A stretch of DNA of 50,377 nucleotides from Myxococcales bacterium. Lineage in GTDB: Bacteria > Myxococcota_A > UBA9042 > JABWCM01 > BTVJ01. The notes below the pieces were generated by a model. It did not search any database and was not told the origin of the DNA. It saw only the letters and a program-made list of their open reading frames with translations. A program made the translations under genes and the position numbers. Where the stretch lies: NCBI GenBank assembly GCA_045863395.1, contig BTVJ01000052.1, forward strand, positions 1 to 50,377. Direction: 5' to 3'. Shown here piece by piece: positions 16,040-25,948 of this stretch. Every line of letters starts with the position of its first letter. Position 1 is the first letter of the stretch.

Positions 16040-17377
16040 CTACTCCTGCGCCATCTGGCGCCCGATTGCCAGCTCCAGCGCCGCGCGGGCGACGAGGTGT
16101 GCCCGCACCGCCTCGGCGTGGCTGTGGCGGGCCTTGGTGTACGCGGCGAGACCCTCCAGGAGGTCCCGCGCCTCGCCCGTGCCCGCGCTGTAGGCGACCT
16201 CGGCGAAGGTCATCCACTTGCGGGTCGCCTGAGCTCCCTCCGCGGCCAGCTCCGCGCTGCGGCGAGTCTCCGTCACCTGCTGCCACGCGCGGCGCACCTC
16301 CAGGGGAATGCCCGTCTCCGCGACTCGCGCCTGGGCCGCCACCTGCTCCGCGGTGGCGCGGGCGCCGCCGGCCTTGGCAGTCGCCAGCGCGGGGTCGAAG
16401 TCCCAGCTCAGGCCCAAGGCCACGCCGCCCGTGATCCCGTTCCAGGGGTCGGCCAGGTAGGGGTTGGTCGTGTCCTCGCGGGTCGGGGTCCAGTCCATGC
16501 GCACCTGCGCCGCCGCGAAGAGCACGGGGTGCATGGCCCGCAGCTCCGCCTGCTCCCACCAGCGGGCTGCGACGAGGCCGTCCGCCGCCTGGTCGAGCTC
16601 TGGCCGCCCTGTTCGCGCTCTGGCAACGAGAGTCACCAGGTCCTCCGTCTCGTCGGGAGGCAGCGGCGGGAGGCGGTCCTCGGCCAGAGCAGGCGGATGC
16701 TCGAGCCCCATGAGGTGCGCCAGGGCCCACCACGCCAGCTCCGCGCCGCCCTCCGCCTCGATGCGTGCACGCTGGAGCTCGACGCTGGCCGCTCGCAGGC
16801 GCTGCCGGTCCGCCTGGGTCACCTGGCCCGTGCCCTGCTGGTACAGCTCATCCGCGCGCTGCTCCGCGCGGTGCAGCACCTCCAGCGCCGCGTCCAGTGT
16901 GGGGAGCAGCGTCAGCGCGAACAGACGTGCATAGTAGAGCTCGCGCACCTGAAAGGCGACGCGGAGGCGCGCCTCCAGGGCCCGCGCGCGCTCCACGCGG
17001 ATCCGCCCGCTCGCCGCCTCCTCCGCGGCCGCCGTCCGGCCGAAGGTCCACAGGGGCTGCACGACGCGCGCCTCCACGTGGAGGGTGGTGCCCCAGTCCT
17101 CGATGCTCTTCCACCGCGTGGTCACCGCGCGGTCGAGGCCCGTGCCCTCCACCGTGTAGTTCGGGGCGACCCAGAGCAGCGCACCGATCTTGGGCGCGTA
17201 GACGGACCCCACCTCGTCGAGGCGCGCGTCCCACTCCCGCACCCTGGCATCGGCCAGCTCCACCGCAGCGCTCTCGCCCACCGCAATGCGCACGCAGTCG
17301 TCTACGTCCAGGGGGGCCTCGCGGCCCCTCGCTCCGACACACAGCAGCCCGAGGACCAACGCAGCCGCGGGCCTCAT
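16040..17377 (-). CDS. TolC family outer membrane efflux protein
   Basis: Signal peptide; QPLWTFG, VRELYY, RPEL, LGLSWDF, AEVAYSAGTG, ARAALELAIG; ATGA overlap with the upstream gene. Confidence 0.85.
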   Translation of the reverse strand: MRPAAALVLGLLCVGARGREAPLDVDDCVRIAVGESAAVELADARVREWDARLDEVGSVYAPKIGALLWVAPNYTVEGTGLDRAVTTRWKSIEDWGTTLHVEARVVQPLWTFGRTAAAEEAASGRIRVERARALEARLRVAFQVRELYYARLFALTLLPTLDAALEVLHRAEQRADELYQQGTGQVTQADRQRLRAASVELQRARIEAEGGAELAWWALAHLMGLEHPPALAEDRLPPLPPDETEDLVTLVARARTGRPELDQAADGLVAARWWEQAELRAMHPVLFAAAQVRMDWTPTREDTTNPYLADPWNGITGGVALGLSWDFDPALATAKAGGARATAEQVAAQARVAETGIPLEVRRAWQQVTETRRSAELAAEGAQATRKWMTFAEVAYSAGTGEARDLLEGLAAYTKARHSHAEAVRAHLVARAALELAIGRQMAQE

Positions 17378-18000
17378 GGAGCCGCCCCGTGGCGTGCGCG
17401 CTCCTCGTCGAGGCGCCTCTCCAATCGCGAGATGAGGGCCGCGGCCCCCTCTCTCTCCAGGATGCGTCCGAACTGGTTCCGGTAGTCCGCCACCAGCGAG
17501 TCGCCGTCGAAGCTCACGTCCACCAGGAGCAGGGGGCCGTCGCCCCGCGTCCGCCAGTGGAAGATGACGTCCGTGTCGAGGTCCTTGCGGGGCACGCGCG
17601 CTGCCATGTGGACGTCTGCGCCGCCAGCCGTCTCCACCTCCCGCAGCGTCCAGGTCGCCTCGCGGAAGAAGCCCCCCGCGTTGGACCAGGCCACGGTGCG
17701 GATCAGCTCCGTGAAGACCTCCCGGTAGCGACGGAGCTGGGGCGCGTCGAGCTTCCCCTCGTGGGGCGCCATGGGGTCGCCCACCAGGCGGTCGAAGTCG
17801 AAGTACCCGTCGAGGGCCGCCAGGGCGAACTGGTTCTGGCGCTGCTCCTCGGGCGTCAGCGGCGCTCCCTCCGAGCGGTGCACGGCCTTGAAGGTCTCGA
17901 TGAGGCCCTCGGTGCGTGCGATGGAGCCCCCCGGGGGGGCCGCCGCGACGAGCGCGCCGAGCAGGGCGCCGAGCATGGGTTCTACGAGGCTGCCCATCAC
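17374..18000 (-). CDS. MlaC/Ttg2D (HpnM-like) periplasmic lipid-binding protein
   Basis: Signal peptide; LDGYFDFDRL, YREVFTELI, LVDVSFDGDSLVADYRNQFGRILEREGAAALISRL (MlaC C-terminal signature). Confidence 0.82.
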   Translation of the reverse strand: MMGSLVEPMLGALLGALVAAAPPGGSIARTEGLIETFKAVHRSEGAPLTPEEQRQNQFALAALDGYFDFDRLVGDPMAPHEGKLDAPQLRRYREVFTELIRTVAWSNAGGFFREATWTLREVETAGGADVHMAARVPRKDLDTDVIFHWRTRGDGPLLLVDVSFDGDSLVADYRNQFGRILEREGAAALISRLERRLDEERARHGAAP

Positions 18001-20852
18001 CCACCTCCCAGGGCGCCGCCTACGAGACGCAGGCACAGGAGGAGCGTCCCCGCCAGCAGCCCCGCGAGCAGGTCGTCTCCCATGACGCCGACGCCACCGT
18101 GCACGCGCGCGTCCACCACGCGGATCGGGCCAGGCTTCAGGATGTCGAACGCCCGGAACAGGACGAAGGCCGCGATGACCCAGAGCGGGGTCCACGGCAC
18201 GAAGGCGAGCGCCAGGAGGCAGCCGAAGAGCTCGTCGAGGACCACCTCCTGGGGGTCGTTGCCCCCACCGCTCCGCCGCATGTACCGATCGATGACCAGG
18301 ACCGCCGCCACCGAGCCGGCGCCGATGACCCCCGCCCACACCCACCATGAGGAGCCGTGCAGCAGCGCCGCCACCGGCAGCGCCATCACGGCCCCGAAGG
18401 TGCCGGGCGCCCGCGGCGACAGGCCGAGCAGACCGACGGTGGAGATGCCCTGGACGATGCGCTGGCCGCGTGGCCCCCTGTGCTTCAGCGCCTCCAGCAG
18501 GGCGGGCAGCACCACGAGGCACACGATGAGGTTGACGGCCAGCCCGAGGAGGATCAGCCGGGCGATGGAGGTCAGCCCCTCGTGGTCGGCGACCAGCAGG
18601 GCCGCGAAGCCGAGGCCGGTCGTCAGGAGCGAGCCCGTGATGCCGCGGCCGGTCTCGTCGATGATCGCCGGCACGGCCACCCCGGCCCGGTGACGCACCA
18701 GCACGTGGAGGCCGCCGTCGAGGCTCATGCCGACCAGCGCCGGCAGCATGACCACGTTGAGATAGTTGAGCTCGGCGCCGCAGAGCGGCATGAGCCCGAA
18801 GGTCGCCATCAGCGTGACGACCGCTGGTGCGAGGCCCAGCAGCGCGAAGCGAAGGCTCCCGAGGAGCAGCCACATGACCGCGAGGCTCACCGCGATGGTC
18901 CCGAGCAGCAGGCGAGGCGCCTCGGACTCCACGATGTCGAGGACGTCGGCGAGGATCATGCTCTCTCCAGCGACCTGGGCGCCGTCCACGCCCCTCACCG
19001 CGCCGCGCACCTCACGCGCAAGCCGGCGCACGGCGGCCCCGTCGCTCTGGTCCACGCTGGCGAAGAGCAGCACGAAGGCGCGGTCCAAGGTGCCGTCCGG
19101 GCGCTGGAACTGGCGGAGCACCTCTGACGGGAGCCCATCGACGGTGAAGGGCCTGGCGCGGGCCTGGACCCGCAGGTCCTCCAGGCGTTCCCGATCCTCG
19201 GGCGCCAACCACCGGGGCTTCACCCTGTCGAGGGCCCGCGTCAGCCGGTCCAGCTCCGCGCGCTTCTGCTCCTGGTCCGGGGGCACCAGGTCCGTGACGG
19301 TGGTGGCGAAGTCCACGGTGGCGGCCCCCGACTGCGCGAGCTTCCGCGCGATCCTGCGGGCGTCGGCCTCCGAGCCCGTCATCACCACCATGGGCGTCTG
19401 GGAGTAGCCGAGCAGGCGGTTCACCTCCTCGTCCAGGCGGAAGGACGGGAGCCCCCGCGACTGGAGCGCCGTGAAGTTCTGGTCGAAGTGGAGCGCGCCC
19501 TGGTTTGCCATGAGCAGGGCAAGGCCCAGCGCCCCGGCCCAGAAGAGGGCCGGTGACCACCGGGGCATGGCGCGGGCCAGGGAGGACGCGGGCCGGGCGC
19601 GCAGGGAGACCGCCCTGCCGAAGAGTGACAGCAGGGCCGGCAGGCAGAGCCCGTAGGCGGCGACGATGGCGAGGGTGCCGAACGCCGTCAGCACGCCGAA
19701 CTCCCGGAAGGCGCGGAAGGCCGAGAACGCGAGGCTCGCCAGGGCCGCCGCGGTGGTCAGGGACGCGAGCAGCACCCCGCGACCGGTGGTGCGGAAGGCC
19801 GTTGCGATGGCCTCTGCGCTCGGCGCGCCGCGAGTCCGCTCCAGCTCGTAGCGTGTGAGCAGGTGGATGCCGTGGTCGATGCCCAGGCCGAGCAGGATGA
19901 CCCCCGCAAACGCCGTCAGGATGTTGAGCTGCCCGAAGGCAAAGCCCGCAAGCCCGAACATCCACACCAGGCCCGTCGCCAGGGGGGCGATGACCAACGC
20001 CACGGCGCGGAGGCGGCGGAAGTGCACGGCGAGGTAGGCGAGCATCAGCGCCAGCGCCAGCGTCGACGAGATCCCTAGGTCCTTGGACAGCTCCTCCTGC
20101 TGGTCGAGGCGCTTCGGGAAGCGCCCGGTGAGGCCGACGCGCGCGCCGGGGCCGTAGGCGGCCATGTCTAGGCTCGTGACCAGCGCGCGCGCGGGCTCCA
20201 CCACCTCGCGCGTGAGCGCCAGGTCCGAGGCGCGCCCCTCGGGTCGCGCCATGACGGCGACCATGCCGTCGCCGGTGTAGAGGTCGTGGCGGCCAATGCG
20301 CCGGATCCACTGGCTGCCCGGCGCCTCGATCTCGTCGCGCTGCTCCAAGGCGAGCGGGGGCGGCGCGTCCTCCAGATCCACGAACATCGGGTTCTGCTTG
20401 CGGCGCTCCCAGGCGATGCGGGCCTCGACGCGGTCCGTGAGGTCTCGCAGGTCTGCGAGGGGGAGGTAGTAGAGCGCCCGGTCCCGGAAGAACGCGACCG
20501 GTCGGCGTGAGTCGACCCAGCGGATGTGCGGCAGCTCGGCCAGGCGCCGCGCCACGTCGTCCGCGAAGGCGTGCTGGCGGCCCGGGTCCACGTGGGTGCC
20601 GACGACCGTGACCGTGCCCACGCCCCCGAAGCGATCCTCCATGGCGCGGAGCGCGGTGACGCTCTCGTGGGACTCGGGCAGCGCGCTGGTCAGGTCCGTG
20701 TCGAGGCGCAGGCGGGACGCCCCGACCAGCGCGACTGCGACCAGCGCGGCGGCTACCGCCAGGATCGCCCACGGGTGCCGGTGCCCGCGGGCGGCGAGCG
20801 CCGACAGCCAACCGTCCACGCGCGGGAGGAAGCCGGTGTCCGCGGTGCCCAT
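17997..20852 (-). CDS. MMPL/RND lipid transporter fused to a C-terminal PgpA (phosphatidylglycerophosphatase A-like) domain
   Basis: MMPL TM4 GLGIDHGIHLL and TM10 GMSLDGGLHV. The last ~150 aa carry PgpA motifs GLSPRAPGTFG, DPQEVVLDE, FRAFDILKPGPI, GGVGVMGDDLLAG in the same frame. Confidence 0.88.
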   Translation of the reverse strand: MGTADTGFLPRVDGWLSALAARGHRHPWAILAVAAALVAVALVGASRLRLDTDLTSALPESHESVTALRAMEDRFGGVGTVTVVGTHVDPGRQHAFADDVARRLAELPHIRWVDSRRPVAFFRDRALYYLPLADLRDLTDRVEARIAWERRKQNPMFVDLEDAPPPLALEQRDEIEAPGSQWIRRIGRHDLYTGDGMVAVMARPEGRASDLALTREVVEPARALVTSLDMAAYGPGARVGLTGRFPKRLDQQEELSKDLGISSTLALALMLAYLAVHFRRLRAVALVIAPLATGLVWMFGLAGFAFGQLNILTAFAGVILLGLGIDHGIHLLTRYELERTRGAPSAEAIATAFRTTGRGVLLASLTTAAALASLAFSAFRAFREFGVLTAFGTLAIVAAYGLCLPALLSLFGRAVSLRARPASSLARAMPRWSPALFWAGALGLALLMANQGALHFDQNFTALQSRGLPSFRLDEEVNRLLGYSQTPMVVMTGSEADARRIARKLAQSGAATVDFATTVTDLVPPDQEQKRAELDRLTRALDRVKPRWLAPEDRERLEDLRVQARARPFTVDGLPSEVLRQFQRPDGTLDRAFVLLFASVDQSDGAAVRRLAREVRGAVRGVDGAQVAGESMILADVLDIVESEAPRLLLGTIAVSLAVMWLLLGSLRFALLGLAPAVVTLMATFGLMPLCGAELNYLNVVMLPALVGMSLDGGLHVLVRHRAGVAVPAIIDETGRGITGSLLTTGLGFAALLVADHEGLTSIARLILLGLAVNLIVCLVVLPALLEALKHRGPRGQRIVQGISTVGLLGLSPRAPGTFGAVMALPVAALLHGSSWWVWAGVIGAGSVAAVLVIDRYMRRSGGGNDPQEVVLDELFGCLLALAFVPWTPLWVIAAFVLFRAFDILKPGPIRVVDARVHGGVGVMGDDLLAGLLAGTLLLCLRLVGGALGGG

Positions 20853-20862
20853 GGCCGCTCCT

Positions 20863-22068
20863 TCAGGGGTGCCGGGTCGGCGCCGTCACGAGCGGGGCGC
20901 CCAGCGGCAGCCAGCTCTTGCGCAGCGGAACGCTCCACGTGATCGCGATGGCCGCCCGCGCCAGCGGCCACGCCACGACCAAGGGCACGCCCGGCAGCGC
21001 CGTCAACAGCCCCACTCCTCCCCCCGCCAGCAGGGCCGTGGAGAGCGAGAGCTGCGTGAAGCGCCGCTCGGCCAGGGCGCCGTGGTTGATCGTGAACTCG
21101 GCCACGGCCCCGAAGGCCACCCCGACCATGGTCGCCAGGCTCCCGGCGAGCCCGAAGCCCGTGACCAGCGCCGCGACCAGCAGCGCATCGGAGGCGAGGC
21201 CGAAGGCCATGGACGTCACGGCGCGCGCGCGTCGCCCTGGTCGCGGCAGCAGGTGCCCCTTCTGGCCCAGCGCCCTCAGCCCGAACAGCAGGCGATGGGC
21301 TGCCGTGAAGTTCGTCGACGCCGCGAGCAGCACGATGCCCGCGATGGCGAGTCGGTGGGGCGGGTGGGGGTCCGCCGGGGAGACCAGCGCCTCGACGATC
21401 GGGGACAGGGCGACCGCCGCCCCCAGGTACACGATGCGCTCGGTGCGCTGCATGAGGCCCACGTCCTTCATGGCCAGGTGCAGCCCCTCCGCCCGGGCGC
21501 GGATGTACGGCACCAGCATGGAGCCGACCAGGGCCAGGAGAACGGCGAGGAGGACCCAGCTCTCCCGGTAGTACCAGGCGAGGCCGGCGAGCACGGCGGC
21601 GTCGCTGATCCGATCCAGCACGGAGTCCAGCAGCGCGCCGCGGGAGCCTGCCTGGCCCGTCGCGCGGGCGATGCGCCCGTCGAGGAAGTCACAGATGCCC
21701 GCGAGGACGAACAGCCACCCTCCCAGCGCGAAGCGCCCCGCCGCGAGGGACACGCCGGAGCCCGCGGCGAGGAGCACGGAGAGCATGGTCACCACGTTGG
21801 CGGGGATCCCGACGCGCAGGGCCCCGTCGACGAGCGGCCGCACGAGCCACACGAAGTACTGGCGCACCCACATGCCGACCAGCACGCTGGACCCGCGGGA
21901 CTCCACCTCCGCGTCCCGGAAGCGCCCCCGCAGGTGACAGCGCACCGCGTAGACGGCCATCCCGCCCAAGAACCAGAGCAGCAGCAGCACCGCGGGCGCG
22001 ACGGCCGTGACGACACGGTCGGCGGGCGTCAGCTCGCCGCGCACCATGCGCAGGAACCACTCGGTCAT
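20863..22068 (-). CDS. CDP-alcohol phosphatidyltransferase (PI-phosphate synthase-like) with C-terminal GtrA-like domain
   Basis: Signature DFLDGRIAR...GALLDSVLDRISD; YIRARAEGL and GLMQRTER as in PIP synthases; C-terminal four-TM GtrA-like segment (GAVAEFTINH...TWSVPLRK). Confidence 0.85.
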   Translation of the reverse strand: MTEWFLRMVRGELTPADRVVTAVAPAVLLLLWFLGGMAVYAVRCHLRGRFRDAEVESRGSSVLVGMWVRQYFVWLVRPLVDGALRVGIPANVVTMLSVLLAAGSGVSLAAGRFALGGWLFVLAGICDFLDGRIARATGQAGSRGALLDSVLDRISDAAVLAGLAWYYRESWVLLAVLLALVGSMLVPYIRARAEGLHLAMKDVGLMQRTERIVYLGAAVALSPIVEALVSPADPHPPHRLAIAGIVLLAASTNFTAAHRLLFGLRALGQKGHLLPRPGRRARAVTSMAFGLASDALLVAALVTGFGLAGSLATMVGVAFGAVAEFTINHGALAERRFTQLSLSTALLAGGGVGLLTALPGVPLVVAWPLARAAIAITWSVPLRKSWLPLGAPLVTAPTRHP

Positions 22069-23015
22069 GTGGAGCCCTCCTCTGCGGGGGTGAGCGCCGC
22101 GTGAGGCCCGTGGGAGACAAGGGCGTGGCCGGCGATGGACACCCCCCAGGCGACCAGCCCGGTCACGACGCCCATCACCACGTCGAGCACGTAGTGGTGG
22201 CCGAGGTACACGGCGGCGAAGGACACGACGGCGGCGAAGACGGCGGCGAACCACACCAGGCCCCGGCTGACCCCGATGACCGCGCAGAGCGCGATGACGG
22301 TGTAGGCGACGTGCAGCGAGGGCATGGCGCCGAAGACGTTGGCGCTGCGCGCGTAGTAGGACGCGAAGTACGTGGTGCCGAGCAGCGCGTCGAAGCGCGC
22401 GGCGCCGGCGGCGCTCTGGGCCGCGTCCAGCACGGCGGGGCCGAGGCCGTGCTCCTCGACGTACCAGGGGGGCGCCGCGGGCCAGACCAGCCACGTGACC
22501 GTCCCGATGGCGTGCATCACGAGGAAGGCCCACGCGAGGCGCGAGGTGCGATCCCGGTGGCGCCCGCCATGAAGGAAGAACAGCCAGATCCCGAGGACGG
22601 GGGGCCACGCCACGTAGGTCGCGTAGGACAAGCCGGTGACCAGGTCCAGTGCGGGCGTGTTGTGTTCGCCGAACCAGGCGGCGAGGGTCTGCGGACCGTC
22701 GGGTCCCGGGGCGGAGAACAGCGCCACCTCTGCGTGGTAGAGGTCGGCGATGTGGATGGGACCTCGCAGGGGCTCCAGGTAGTGGAAGGCCTCGTAGGTC
22801 ATGCCGCCGAACGCGAAGGGGGCGGCCAACATGCTGAAGCGCCGCGCCGTCGGCCCCGCCCAGGCGGTCACGACGAACAGCAGATCCAGGGCCAGGTGCT
22901 CGAACCGGGCGCCGAAGGTCAGCTCCGTCAGCAGCAGGTGCCCGGGGAACAGGATGGAGGCCGCCCACCGCCACCAGAGGCCCGCCTCGGGCGTCCCGGA
23001 CTCTGGCCGCTGCAT
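22065..23015 (-). CDS. Aur1/Ipt1-like inositol phosphotransferase (IPC synthase-like, PAP2 superfamily)
   Basis: PAAPPWY, FGAMPSLH and YLGHHYVLD match the conserved domains of fungal Aur1; GGAGG RBS before ATG 23015. Confidence 0.85.
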   Translation of the reverse strand: MQRPESGTPEAGLWWRWAASILFPGHLLLTELTFGARFEHLALDLLFVVTAWAGPTARRFSMLAAPFAFGGMTYEAFHYLEPLRGPIHIADLYHAEVALFSAPGPDGPQTLAAWFGEHNTPALDLVTGLSYATYVAWPPVLGIWLFFLHGGRHRDRTSRLAWAFLVMHAIGTVTWLVWPAAPPWYVEEHGLGPAVLDAAQSAAGAARFDALLGTTYFASYYARSANVFGAMPSLHVAYTVIALCAVIGVSRGLVWFAAVFAAVVSFAAVYLGHHYVLDVVMGVVTGLVAWGVSIAGHALVSHGPHAALTPAEEGST

Positions 23016-23237: not shown

Positions 23238-24458
23238 GTGCGAACCGTCACCCAACTGGCCCTCGCGGGGCTCTTGTGCCTGCTCCCCTCGCTTGCTCGC
23301 GCCGAGCTCGGGGTCTCCGCCGAGCTGGACCCCGACCGGGTCGAGGTGGCGCTGCTCCCCGGGGTCACGGTCAGCACGGAGACCGGCTTCGGCTTCGGCG
23401 TGCTCGGCGCGGTGGCCGGCTTCGAGCCCGGGTACACCCCCTACCGCTGGCGCCTTCAGGCGTCGGTGCAGCTCAGCGTGCGTGAGGGGCCCGACGGCGA
23501 CGTGGAGTGGCCCGTGCAGAGCTACTGGCTCCTCTTCGACCTGCCGGAGCTCGGCGCGCGCTGGCTCCGGCTCAGCGGGAAGGTGGGGTACAGGCAGCAC
23601 GCGGCGCTGGGGTGGTACGGCATCGGCAACGGGTCCAGTGACTCACCCCCTGCCCACGCCGACGGGGGGCGGTGGTTTCGCTACGAGCGCCTGTTCCCGG
23701 AGGCCACGGTCATGCTGCGCGCGCGGCTTGGCGGCGAGCTGTCCGTCTTCGGGGGGGCGACCTTCTCCTACAGCCAGGTGACCGTCGGCGAAGGGCGCCT
23801 CGCCATGGACCTGGACGACGACCCGCGTTCCCTGCTGGTCGGTGCCCGTCCCCATGGAGACGCGTGCCTCCGGGTGGGGCTGATCTACGACTCCCGGGAC
23901 CACGAGACGTCGCCGACCCGCGGCATGCTCCACGAGGTGGCCCTGGAGGCCGGCGCGGGGCTCGGCGAGTCCTTCGCCTATGGGCGCCTCCACGCCCAGG
24001 CGCGCTTCTTCGTGCCCATCGCGGGGCGGCGCCTGGTCGTGGCGGCGCGCCTCCTCGCCGACGTGATGGTCGGCGAGCCGCCCTTCTACGAGCTGTCGCG
24101 GATGGGCGGCTCCAACCCCGTCGACGGGCCGGCCGGGGCGCACGGGATCCGCGGCGTGCCGGCGCAGCGCTACGCCGGGGAGGTCAAGCTCGTGGGCAAC
24201 GTGGAGCTGCGCAGCCACATCGTGGGCTTCGAGGTGGGAGAGCAGCGCTTCACGGTCGGGGTCGCGGCCTTCGCGGACGCGGGGCGGGTGTTCGCGGAGC
24301 TCACGGAGGCCCACCCGGGCCTGGACGGGGGCGACCTGAAGCTCGGCCTCGGCGGGGGGCTGCGCCTCGGGTGGGGCGAGACCTTCGTCGGGCGCATCGA
24401 CGCCGCGTGGTCTCCGGACGGCGTGGGCTTCTACGCCCTGGCCGGGCACCCGTTCTGA
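23238..24458 (+). CDS. Omp85/BamA-TamA superfamily outer membrane beta-barrel (no obvious POTRA domain)
   Basis: Signal peptide; YDSRD..SPTRG, GIRGVPAQRY, GNVELR, FADAGRV, GGGLRL; C-terminal Phe. Confidence 0.85.
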   Translation: MRTVTQLALAGLLCLLPSLARAELGVSAELDPDRVEVALLPGVTVSTETGFGFGVLGAVAGFEPGYTPYRWRLQASVQLSVREGPDGDVEWPVQSYWLLFDLPELGARWLRLSGKVGYRQHAALGWYGIGNGSSDSPPAHADGGRWFRYERLFPEATVMLRARLGGELSVFGGATFSYSQVTVGEGRLAMDLDDDPRSLLVGARPHGDACLRVGLIYDSRDHETSPTRGMLHEVALEAGAGLGESFAYGRLHAQARFFVPIAGRRLVVAARLLADVMVGEPPFYELSRMGGSNPVDGPAGAHGIRGVPAQRYAGEVKLVGNVELRSHIVGFEVGEQRFTVGVAAFADAGRVFAELTEAHPGLDGGDLKLGLGGGLRLGWGETFVGRIDAAWSPDGVGFYALAGHPF

Positions 24459-25387
24459 TGGCGCGCCTCCTCGTGCTGTGCCTGCTGTTCGGGGCGTGCG
24501 GGGGCCTCTCTCCCATCCGCGGCCCCTTCGACGCCGCTCTGGACGTGGTCGACCGGCCGCCCGCCAGCGACGGCCGCCGCGTCTCGGTGGACGGCGCCTG
24601 CAACGGGCACGCGGCCCTGTGCGAGCGGCGCTACGACCAGGTGGCCTTCGCGGCGACCCACAACGCCATGTCCAGCGCCGACGAGGGGTGGTTTCAGCCC
24701 AACCAGCAGCATGCGCTGAGGCGGCAGCTCGACGACGGCGTGCGCGCCCTCCTGCTCGATACCCACTACTCTGGGGGGCGCGTCTCCCTCTGCCACGGCG
24801 TCTGCGCTGCCGGGCGTTCGCCGTTGAGCGACGCCCTGGCGGTCATCGCTGGGTTCCTGCGCGACAACCCGCGGGAGGTCGTCACGCTGATCTTCGAGGC
24901 CCATGTGTCTGCGGCGGACACGGCGGCGGAGATCGCCCGCGCGGGCCTGCTCCCGGCCGTCTACACGCACCGCGGCGCGTGGCCGACCCTCGGGGAGATG
25001 ATCGCCACGGGCCGCCGCCTCGTGATCTTCACCGAGCGGGGAGGAGGCGCGCCCCGGTGGTACCACGACCTGTGGGTCCACGCCTGGGAGACTCCCTACC
25101 GCTTCGGAGGCTCAGGAGACTTCACCTGCGGGAAGAACCGGGGCACCGAGGGGGCCCCGCTGTTCCTGCTCAATCACTTCGTCACCCCGGTCTTTCCGAG
25201 CCTGTCCGCCTCGCGCGAGGTCAACCAGTGGGCCGTCCTGGGCGCACGGGCGCGGGAGTGTCAGCGCCGCTCCGGGCGCCTCCCCAACTTCGTCGCGGTG
25301 GACTTCTACGCCACCGGCGACCTGCTCGCGGTGGTGGACGCGCTCAACGGGGTCGCCACGATGGGCTCCGCGGGCGCCGCTCCCTGA
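24458..25387 (+). CDS. PI-specific phospholipase C-like phosphodiesterase lipoprotein
   Basis: Lipobox LFGAC; CNGHAALC, THNA, NQ..QLDDGVRALLLDTH, LCHG, NPREVVTLIFE, LLNHF, PNFVAVDFY; TGATG overlap with the Omp85 gene. Confidence 0.82.
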   Translation: MARLLVLCLLFGACGGLSPIRGPFDAALDVVDRPPASDGRRVSVDGACNGHAALCERRYDQVAFAATHNAMSSADEGWFQPNQQHALRRQLDDGVRALLLDTHYSGGRVSLCHGVCAAGRSPLSDALAVIAGFLRDNPREVVTLIFEAHVSAADTAAEIARAGLLPAVYTHRGAWPTLGEMIATGRRLVIFTERGGGAPRWYHDLWVHAWETPYRFGGSGDFTCGKNRGTEGAPLFLLNHFVTPVFPSLSASREVNQWAVLGARARECQRRSGRLPNFVAVDFYATGDLLAVVDALNGVATMGSAGAAP

Positions 25388-25498
25388 TCGGGTCCTCACG
25401 CGGTGCCGGCCCTCGGGCCGGCCCCACGTGCTCCCGCCTGGACCCCGCTCGCCCCACCGTGCGACACTCGCCCCCGGCCCGCGGGGGACGAGGCGGTC

Positions 25499-25948
25499 AT
25501 GGTGCTGGAGCTTGCCTCCCTGGTGGTCGTCGGCCTGGCCGGGACCGTGCTCTGGGTCCTGAACCCGGAGGCGGCGGCGATCTTCTACGGGGCAGAGCTC
25601 GAGTGGAGCCCGCCGGTGGTCGGGCTCGTCCTCGGCGCCTCCCAGGCGCTCTCATACGGCGTCATCTTTGGCTTCGGCGAGGTGCTCGTTCGCCGCTGGA
25701 GCTGGCTCGCGCGCAAGGTGGAGTCGACGCGCGCCCGGTACGCCTCCCACCTGGAGAGAAACTACCTGCTGATGAGCTTCTCGGGGGCGGTCACGGGACT
25801 CCCCCCCATCATCGCCCTGACGATCCTGGCGGGCGGCTTCGGGGTGCCGCTCCGCCACTTCCTCCCCGTCTGTGCCGCAGGCCGAGTGATCCGCTTCACG
25901 GTCCTCGCCGCCGTGGGCAGTGGGCTCTTGGAGTGGTGGCGAGGGTGA
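25499..25948 (+). CDS. DedA/VTT (YqaA-like) membrane protein
   Basis: Hydrophobic; NPEA, GLPP..LAGGFGVPLRHF...GRVIRF. Confidence 0.75.
   Translation: MVLELASLVVVGLAGTVLWVLNPEAAAIFYGAELEWSPPVVGLVLGASQALSYGVIFGFGEVLVRRWSWLARKVESTRARYASHLERNYLLMSFSGAVTGLPPIIALTILAGGFGVPLRHFLPVCAAGRVIRFTVLAAVGSGLLEWWRG

Follow-up and report, generated by a model that had tools for sequence, protein, structure and literature searches.

In Bacteroides thetaiotaomicron, passages of PMC9246714 assign the cluster BT_1522-BT_1526 to inositol lipids: BT_1522 is a phosphatidylinositol (PI)-dihydroceramide synthase, BT_1523 a phosphatidylinositol phosphate (PIP) synthase, BT_1525 a PgpA-type PIP phosphatase and BT_1526 MIPS, and BT_1524 is a GtrA-like protein whose knockout has no lipid phenotype. 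The same source cites ceramide phosphoinositol in Myxococcus xanthus. The route by which such lipids (sphingolipids and PI, as opposed to lipopolysaccharide, LPS) reach the Gram-negative outer membrane is largely open. Sphingolipid transport is called 'a mystery' in a passage of a 2026 preprint, and a passage of bioRxiv 10.64898/2026.04.12.717747 puts forward the hypothesis of an MmpL route for sphingolipids, with an MmpL gene beside spt in M. xanthus. Here we analyse a five-gene operon in a 50,377-nucleotide stretch of DNA (the window; contig BTVJ01000052.1 of the Myxococcales bacterium assembly GCA_045863395.1), which combines counterparts of the Bacteroides synthesis genes with genes for an MMPL transporter, an MlaC-like carrier and a TolC-like protein. 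On balance we lean towards the reading that this operon makes PI together with an inositol-phospho-amino-lipid, both of which are then probably passed on to the outer membrane. It thereby names a candidate pathway, one in which synthesis enzymes are physically fused to the pump.

Operon organization

The five open reading frames (ORFs) are tightly packed on the minus strand and run from position 23015 to 16040 in the following order:

22065..23015, minus strand: Aur1/BT_1522-like PAP2_3 phosphotransferase, 316 amino acids (Pfam PAP2_3, 81.9 bits)
20863..22068, minus strand: predicted PIP synthase (about residues 1-270) fused to a GtrA-like membrane domain, 401 amino acids (CDP-OH_P_transf 59.3 and GtrA 17.9 bits)
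17997..20852, minus strand: HpnN-like (HAE3/MMPL) RND transporter (about residues 8-790) fused to a PgpA-type lipid phosphatase (about residues 800-945), 951 amino acids (MMPL 128.4 and PgpA 115.3 bits)
17374..17997, minus strand: MlaC/Ttg2D-like periplasmic lipid carrier, 207 amino acids (Pfam MlaC, 52.7 bits)
16040..17377, minus strand: TolC-fold outer-membrane protein of a distinct subfamily, 445 amino acids (OEP, 91.3 bits)

The junctions are, in order, an ATGA overlap, a 10-bp gap, a TGATG one-base overlap and an ATGA overlap; should translation begin at the GTG at 18000, the third is a GTGA overlap instead. A preliminary description of this DNA had given five co-directional genes in this order and at these positions, and an ORF check together with Pfam and NCBIfam searches bears it out. 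Its statement that MIPS and serine palmitoyltransferase (SPT) lie outside the window is also correct, and the Bacteroides roles that it had cited are confirmed by the passages of PMC9246714 that deal with them. The host genome (G000) comprises 8.8 Mb and is 97.4% complete. A promoter and terminator scan of the operon is uninformative (0 promoter-like sites; 2 terminator-like sites with 1.1 expected). Contigs from metatranscriptomes include stretches of each of the five genes and span three of the junctions, but they are shallowly and evenly covered and might stem from DNA carry-over, so they are no proof of co-transcription.

Predicted inositol lipid synthesis

The CDP-alcohol phosphotransferase of the second gene scores 135.9 bits against the NCBIfam model for archaetidylinositol phosphate synthase, 109.4 against PIPSynth and 106.4 against the BT1523 model, compared with 32.8 for pgsA and 28.4 for pssA. 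PIP-synthase models outscore PgsA by 70-100 bits, and the protein remains beneath every inositol-phosphate equivalog cut-off (170-350). Its closest PDB matches are the PI(P) synthases 6h5a, 6h53 and 6wm5 (E 1e-18 to 1e-20), and an intact motif, DFLDGRIAR...G...D...D, begins at residue 127 (residues 127-152) and fits the pattern DX2DGX2AR...GX3DX3D. The fused GtrA piece falls under its cut-off of 26.1 bits; C-terminal pieces homologous to it are found repeatedly, and one relative that stands alone (L055:6024) reaches 68.3. The acidic motifs of the PgpA domain are intact (DPQEVVLDE / FRAFDILKP / DDLLAG), and by BLAST it is the sole PgpA in the host.

MIPS is encoded on another contig (G000:C4:206029, 120.9 bits) and adjoins the cluster in relatives. 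It is present in 90 of the 141 genomes of a phylum sample that includes the host, far more commonly than PIP synthase, so MIPS alone is not diagnostic. The CDP-alcohol phosphotransferase groups with PIP synthases and not with PgsA or PssA, the genome has MIPS, and the MMPL gene is syntenic with synthesis genes in many lineages. The earlier proposal of PIP and PI synthesis thus stands on each of the three genomic points at which it could have failed. That the operon makes PI via PIP is well supported and very probable as a prediction of enzyme activity, and its synthesis half is, from its sequence, a further member of the known Bacteroides-type pathway. Elsewhere in the host, at about 89900-93000 of contig C6 (L212), two other CDP-alcohol phosphotransferases flank an NTP transferase in an arrangement that resembles a CDP-head-group lipid pathway.

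Recurrence of the synthesis-transport link

Scanning GTDB with an aligned set of this MMPL subfamily yielded 188 relatives, from which 77 loci were kept, and genes in these loci were counted with hidden Markov models built from them. The hosts include Myxococcota and Bdellovibrionota records. PIP synthase is present in 36 loci, MIPS in 20, an Aur1-like gene in 16 and PgpA in 15. In 12 of the latter PgpA is fused to the MMPL, and this recurrence indicates that the fusion is real. PIP synthase occurs with PgpA in 14 loci and with a dual-specificity phosphatase in 11. The two phosphatases are never found together (0 of 77), which fits two alternative PIP phosphatases.

The 77 loci contain close kin, so they are not independent, and many are ended by contig ends; 140 other genomes, sampled evenly across the phylum, were therefore also used (thresholds E<=1e-30 for PIP synthase and E<=1e-90 for the MMPL). 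Thirteen of these genomes have PIP synthase, and 10 of the 13 have an MMPL gene beside it; one of the remaining three has no MMPL within 16 kb, and the other two are visible over only about 3.6 kb. Conversely, 13 genomes have this MMPL and 10 of them have adjoining inositol genes. In a tree of 122 MMPL rows (made by a quick method, with some long branches), the inositol-linked MMPLs are scattered over many branches and include distant clades (G031, G021, G042 and G043). An MMPL gene lies next to PIP synthase in different clades of that enzyme. Even where the MMPL locus lacks PIP synthase (34 genomes), 23 genomes carry the enzyme elsewhere, 21 of them at E<=1e-30, compared with 13 of 140 in the phylum sample. 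It is likely, by our estimate, that the MMPL handles inositol lipids. Cultured Corallococcus, Pyxidicoccus and Citreicoccus possess orthologous clusters of MMPL and inositol genes, which makes this step testable by knockouts.

Several variants of the cluster recur. The order in Myxococcaceae is MIPS, Aur1-like gene, PIP synthase-GtrA, a Svf1/CrtC-like gene, dual-specificity phosphatase, sometimes a fatty-acid hydroxylase, and then two MMPLs. The unannotated, beta-rich Svf1/CrtC-like protein is found in 18 of the 77 loci, often directly upstream of the MMPL (L053:8763, L056:5912, L060:8651, L103:4797 and L107:8680), and also at G000:C2:168353. It was assigned with an Atlas score of 0.96 and a recognition under the tool's threshold, and it is possibly an alternative periplasmic lipid carrier. 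Within two inositol clusters (L091:4905-6665 and L095:5282-6922), PgpA is fused to a degenerate MMPL-like membrane protein that lacks periplasmic domains. Three further loci, L122 and L123 (G031 and G021) and L124 (G026), contain MIPS-MMPL(-PIP synthase) together with an extra oxidoreductase and aminotransferase, which suggests amino-inositol lipids.

Transport proteins

The operon MMPL is related to HpnN at the level of fold. It scores 274 bits against the HpnN model TIGR03480 (cut-off 752) and 149 of 1100 against NF052374, and its acidic residues in transmembrane segments 4 and 10 are intact. The AlphaFold model of the MMPL-PgpA protein (pLDDT 81.8) has HpnN (5KHN) as its top Foldseek match (E 9.5e-26), and the fold is of the HAE3 RND type, with 5KHN closest. 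The MlaC-like protein reaches 25.5 bits against the HpnM model (cut-off 160), and the profile of its subfamily matches MlaC structures (top E 1.5e-16). Its gene neighbours are the MMPL and TolC genes and not those of an Mla system; the rest of the genome was not searched for mlaFEDB. Hopanoid-synthesis genes, which would be expected for an HpnN/HpnM pair, are found neither beside the operon nor in the host.

A model of the MMPL-MlaC complex scores 0.47 (best control 0.00), at least 95% of contacts are shared between runs, and the partner has a pLDDT of 81. Among solved pairs, 116 of 157 attain the mark that it passes, and among mismatched pairs 2 of 215 do. Only 18 of the solved pairs, and both mismatches, passed with 0.60 or less, and passes in this range are more often wrong than right unless the pair is likely beforehand. 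The model lends the pairing weak support. The TolC-like model (pLDDT 88.9) matches TolC/OMF folds at a TM score of about 0.75 with 15-16% identity, and its orthologues in relatives are 39-50% identical. No gene for a periplasmic adaptor is present in the operon or among the 45 genes scanned of the 72 listed as flanking it in relatives. Close to the end of another contig, the host has a second pair of TolC and MlaC genes (G000:C96:24464-26706, L206), with no MMPL in view.

The acceptor lipid

The Aur1-like protein is a PAP2_3 enzyme with His/His/Asp motifs (PSLH at 232 and HHYVLD at 273) that are conserved in relatives. It scores 175 bits against the PI-dihydroceramide synthase model NF052609, whose cut-off of 480 is reached by no non-Bacteroides genome among 45 hand-picked, related genomes. 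This set also served for comparing SPT, GNAT, Aur1-like and polyketide synthase (PKS) genes. Aur1-like genes occur in 24 of the 45, and a GNAT resembling a bacterial ceramide synthase (bCerS-like) occurs in 20 of these 24 and in 4 of the 21 others. The query for this label was the GNAT beside the Corallococcus SPT, which we take to be bCerS-like from its position. Across genomes, the Aur1-like family generally tracks ceramide synthesis.

The host departs from this pattern. No stand-alone SPT was found in it, and no bCerS-like GNAT was found in it or in G025, G035 and G024; these four are the Aur1-like genomes that lack the GNAT, and all belong to the class of the host. A search for TLC ceramide synthases gave no match in any genome, and the control genomes were equally silent. 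Within the set of 45, 14 genomes carry SPT-like genes (more than 390 bits, under the cut-off of 640) and 10 carry PKS-oxoamine-synthase fusions; none has both. There are 15 class I/II aminotransferase matches in the host, of which 8 were classified, and two of these are oxoamine synthases by family. One is a glycine C-acetyltransferase; the other is the C-terminal part of a 2286-residue PKS (KS-AT-KR-DH). This PKS lies in an SDR-FAAL-PKS operon at G000:C2:264668-274501 (L172), which is unlinked to the window and is a candidate for an alternative sphingoid-base synthase. PKS-derived sphingolipids occur in Pseudomonas via SgaAB, according to passages of PMC12134224. In a single case, G167, two bCerS-like genes adjoin a FAAL-ACP-PKS cluster.

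The ceramide acceptor step in the host is thus uncertain. The preliminary description had proposed that the operon makes inositol-phosphoceramide. The case for this is weaker than was claimed in that the host offers only the FAAL and PKS-oxoamine-synthase cluster in place of SPT and the GNAT.

Envelope context

Searches that gave matches in control genomes detected no LpxC, LpxB, WaaA N-terminal domain or LptD in the host. LpxC was found in 0 of 25 same-class genomes of the sample and in 1 of 23 further ones. The host and its class are, from this gene content, apparently lipid-A-less diderms whose outer membrane needs other lipids, and the operon draws attention to a class with LpxC in just 1 of 48 other genomes searched. 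We rejected the notion that the transport module is a general compensation for LPS loss: 38 of the 47 carriers of the MMPL subfamily outside the class have LpxC, and the subfamily MMPL occurs in only 8 of 40 relatives.

The host also encodes a sterol pathway at about 83900-90800 of contig C26 (L205) and 10700-15000 of contig C65 (L208), with an oxidosqualene cyclase, a CYP51-like P450, an ERG24-like reductase, an SdmB-like SDR and a Rieske protein. The sole clear cyclase in the genome is of the oxidosqualene type (744 versus 242 bits) and lies on another contig than the operon, so a squalene-hopene cyclase identity was rejected. Two other host MMPLs outscore the operon MMPL on the HpnN model (466 and 413 bits). 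The one with 466 bits, which is more HpnN/BstA-like, adjoins squalene epoxidase and is a candidate transporter dedicated to sterols.

Proposed mechanism and alternatives

Export is suggested here by protein families and gene context. MIPS would make inositol-phosphate, which PIP synthase would join to CDP-diacylglycerol. The PgpA domain at the C terminus of the MMPL would then remove the phosphate from PIP to give PI, by analogy with Bacteroides BT_1523/BT_1525, and the GtrA-like domain may help to flip the lipid. The Aur1-like enzyme would take the phosphoinositol head group off PI and attach it to a ceramide-like acceptor, and the chances that this acceptor is built by the FAAL-PKS-oxoamine-synthase cluster on contig C2 seem to us slightly short of even. 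The proton-driven, HpnN-like MMPL would lift the lipid out of the inner membrane and pass it to the MlaC-like carrier, which would deliver it, without a periplasmic adaptor, to the TolC-fold protein as acceptor; insertion may occur through or beside this protein. Whether MlaC and TolC deliver inositol lipids to the outer membrane is, in our judgement, evenly poised. A bolder form of the proposal makes the MMPL-MlaC-TolC trio an adaptor-less, proton-driven anterograde route with a TolC-fold lipid acceptor. In this apparently lipid-A-less class, the route would furnish the outer leaflet with inositol (sphingo)lipids, and a fused PKS-oxoamine synthase would take the place of SPT in making their long-chain base. 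We hold this to be doubtful.

Besides the missing SPT and GNAT genes and the LpxC of most carriers outside the class, several observations weigh against an operon devoted to inositol lipid export. All five genes occur together in just 2 of the 77 loci. MlaC and TolC both follow the MMPL in only 22, 11 of which have PIP synthase, MIPS or Aur1-like genes. Four genomes (G003, G189, G194 and G195) among the 10 trio loci without inositol genes show no PIP synthase anywhere. The trio-bearing G033 and G159 also lack it, G159 lacking MIPS too, and so do 11 of the 34 genomes whose MMPL locus is without PIP synthase. The fused PgpA, moreover, could also serve phosphatidylglycerol synthesis. MlaC and TolC are a separable add-on to the MMPL and, given the trio's presence in genomes without PIP synthase, are not inositol-specific. 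The coupling of synthesis to transport posited in the preliminary description accordingly stands for the recurrent synteny of MMPL and PIP synthase and is weaker than claimed for MlaC and TolC.

These trio loci raise the alternative that the synthesis genes make PI while MMPL-MlaC-TolC is a general exporter of envelope lipids (bulk phospholipid, sphingolipid or other) that often lies beside lipid-synthesis genes and has no preference for inositol. At least 6 genomes have the trio without PIP synthase, and the second TolC-MlaC pair on C96 is also in keeping with it. In cultured Corallococcus coralloides (L184, G173:C1:4552000-4560500), a paralogous TolC-MlaC pair converges on a GNAT-SPT-like pair with a divergent MMPL, itself a paralogue that is 31% identical. 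We nevertheless consider an exporter indifferent to inositol unlikely, in view of the fusion of PgpA to this very MMPL, the MMPL neighbours of different PIP-synthase clades and the excess of PIP synthase in genomes whose MMPL is detached from it. The same MlaC-TolC pair is also present in G031 and G021, divergent from MIPS, a distant MMPL, PIP synthase, GtrA and PgpA. Our preferred reading of the trio is a module for lipid export that is recruited to loci of inositol lipids and of sphingolipids.

Canonical MlaC works in the retrograde direction, and the trio might likewise work inward, as Mla does for phospholipids, and feed the synthesis enzymes with inositol lipids or ceramides that it takes up or recycles, either from the outer membrane or from prey. 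Type I phosphodiesterases (10 of 77 loci) and the Svf1/CrtC-like beta-barrel protein as recurrent neighbours would suit such uptake, as would hosts among Myxococcota and Bdellovibrionota, and a scavenged acceptor would suit the Aur1-like enzyme of a host without ceramide synthase. This direction is improbable in our view, since HpnN, the closest solved relative, is described as an exporter in passages of PMC10942540 and PMC8277102, and de novo MIPS is usually linked to the cluster.

Least probable is that MMPL-MlaC is an ordinary triterpenoid (sterol) carrier of the HpnN/HpnM or BstA type that stands in an inositol operon by chance: HpnN and BstA are indeed its top models and folds and the genome has an oxidosqualene cyclase cluster, but both proteins score far under the family cut-offs, no triterpenoid gene is among the recurrent neighbour families tested in Pfam, and the higher-scoring MMPL beside squalene epoxidase weakens the case for a sterol cargo here.

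Neighbouring genes

A divergent three-gene run on the plus strand of the window (23238-25948) encodes an Omp85-family barrel, a PI-PLC-X-like lipoprotein with two paralogues in the host, and a VTT/DedA-like protein. None of the three is found near the cluster in the 77 related loci, and we rejected the Omp85 and PI-PLC-like genes as parts of the system for lack of any such match.

Comparison with known systems

With BT_1522-BT_1526, as described in passages of PMC9246714, the operon shares an Aur1-like PI-dihydroceramide synthase, a PIP synthase with the motif given above, a GtrA-like protein and a PgpA-type PIP phosphatase; MIPS is clustered in relatives. It differs in that GtrA is fused to the synthase, PgpA is fused to an RND transporter, MIPS is unlinked in the host and no canonical SPT or ceramide synthase was found there. 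It also has an attached transport module, and the word 'transport' appears nowhere in the main text of that paper. The operon family supplies likely genes for myxobacterial ceramide phosphoinositol. Like the SgaAB system of Pseudomonas, in the passages of PMC12134224 concerned, the host has a PKS and an alpha-oxoamine synthase that would replace the SPT route. Unlike SgaAB, the two are fused and a FAAL precedes them, and the genes are unlinked to the window.

The transport half shares with HpnN (5KHN)/HpnM and with the sterol system BstABC, in the passages of PMC10942540 that describe it, the HAE3/MMPL fold, a periplasmic lipid-binding partner and a gene position beside the synthesis genes of the presumed cargo. 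The operon MMPL is about 20% identical to these proteins, under the family cut-offs, and has inositol-lipid neighbours and a phosphatase domain, and the outer-membrane partner is a TolC-fold protein instead of BstC. AcrAB-TolC tripartite pumps likewise pair an RND inner-membrane protein and a TolC-fold protein in one operon; here no periplasmic adaptor is found, an MlaC-like shuttle lies between the two genes, and the RND protein is of the HpnN type. The MmpL proposal for M. xanthus concerns the spt locus and, in the passage concerned, mentions no inositol genes, MlaC or TolC; its counterpart in Corallococcus is the paralogue with 31% identity. A literature search that left subscription journals mostly outside its coverage, and supplements too, returned no description of this cluster or of the coupling. 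The coupled HpnN-like/MlaC/TolC export, itself a prediction, would be a new variant of known transport.

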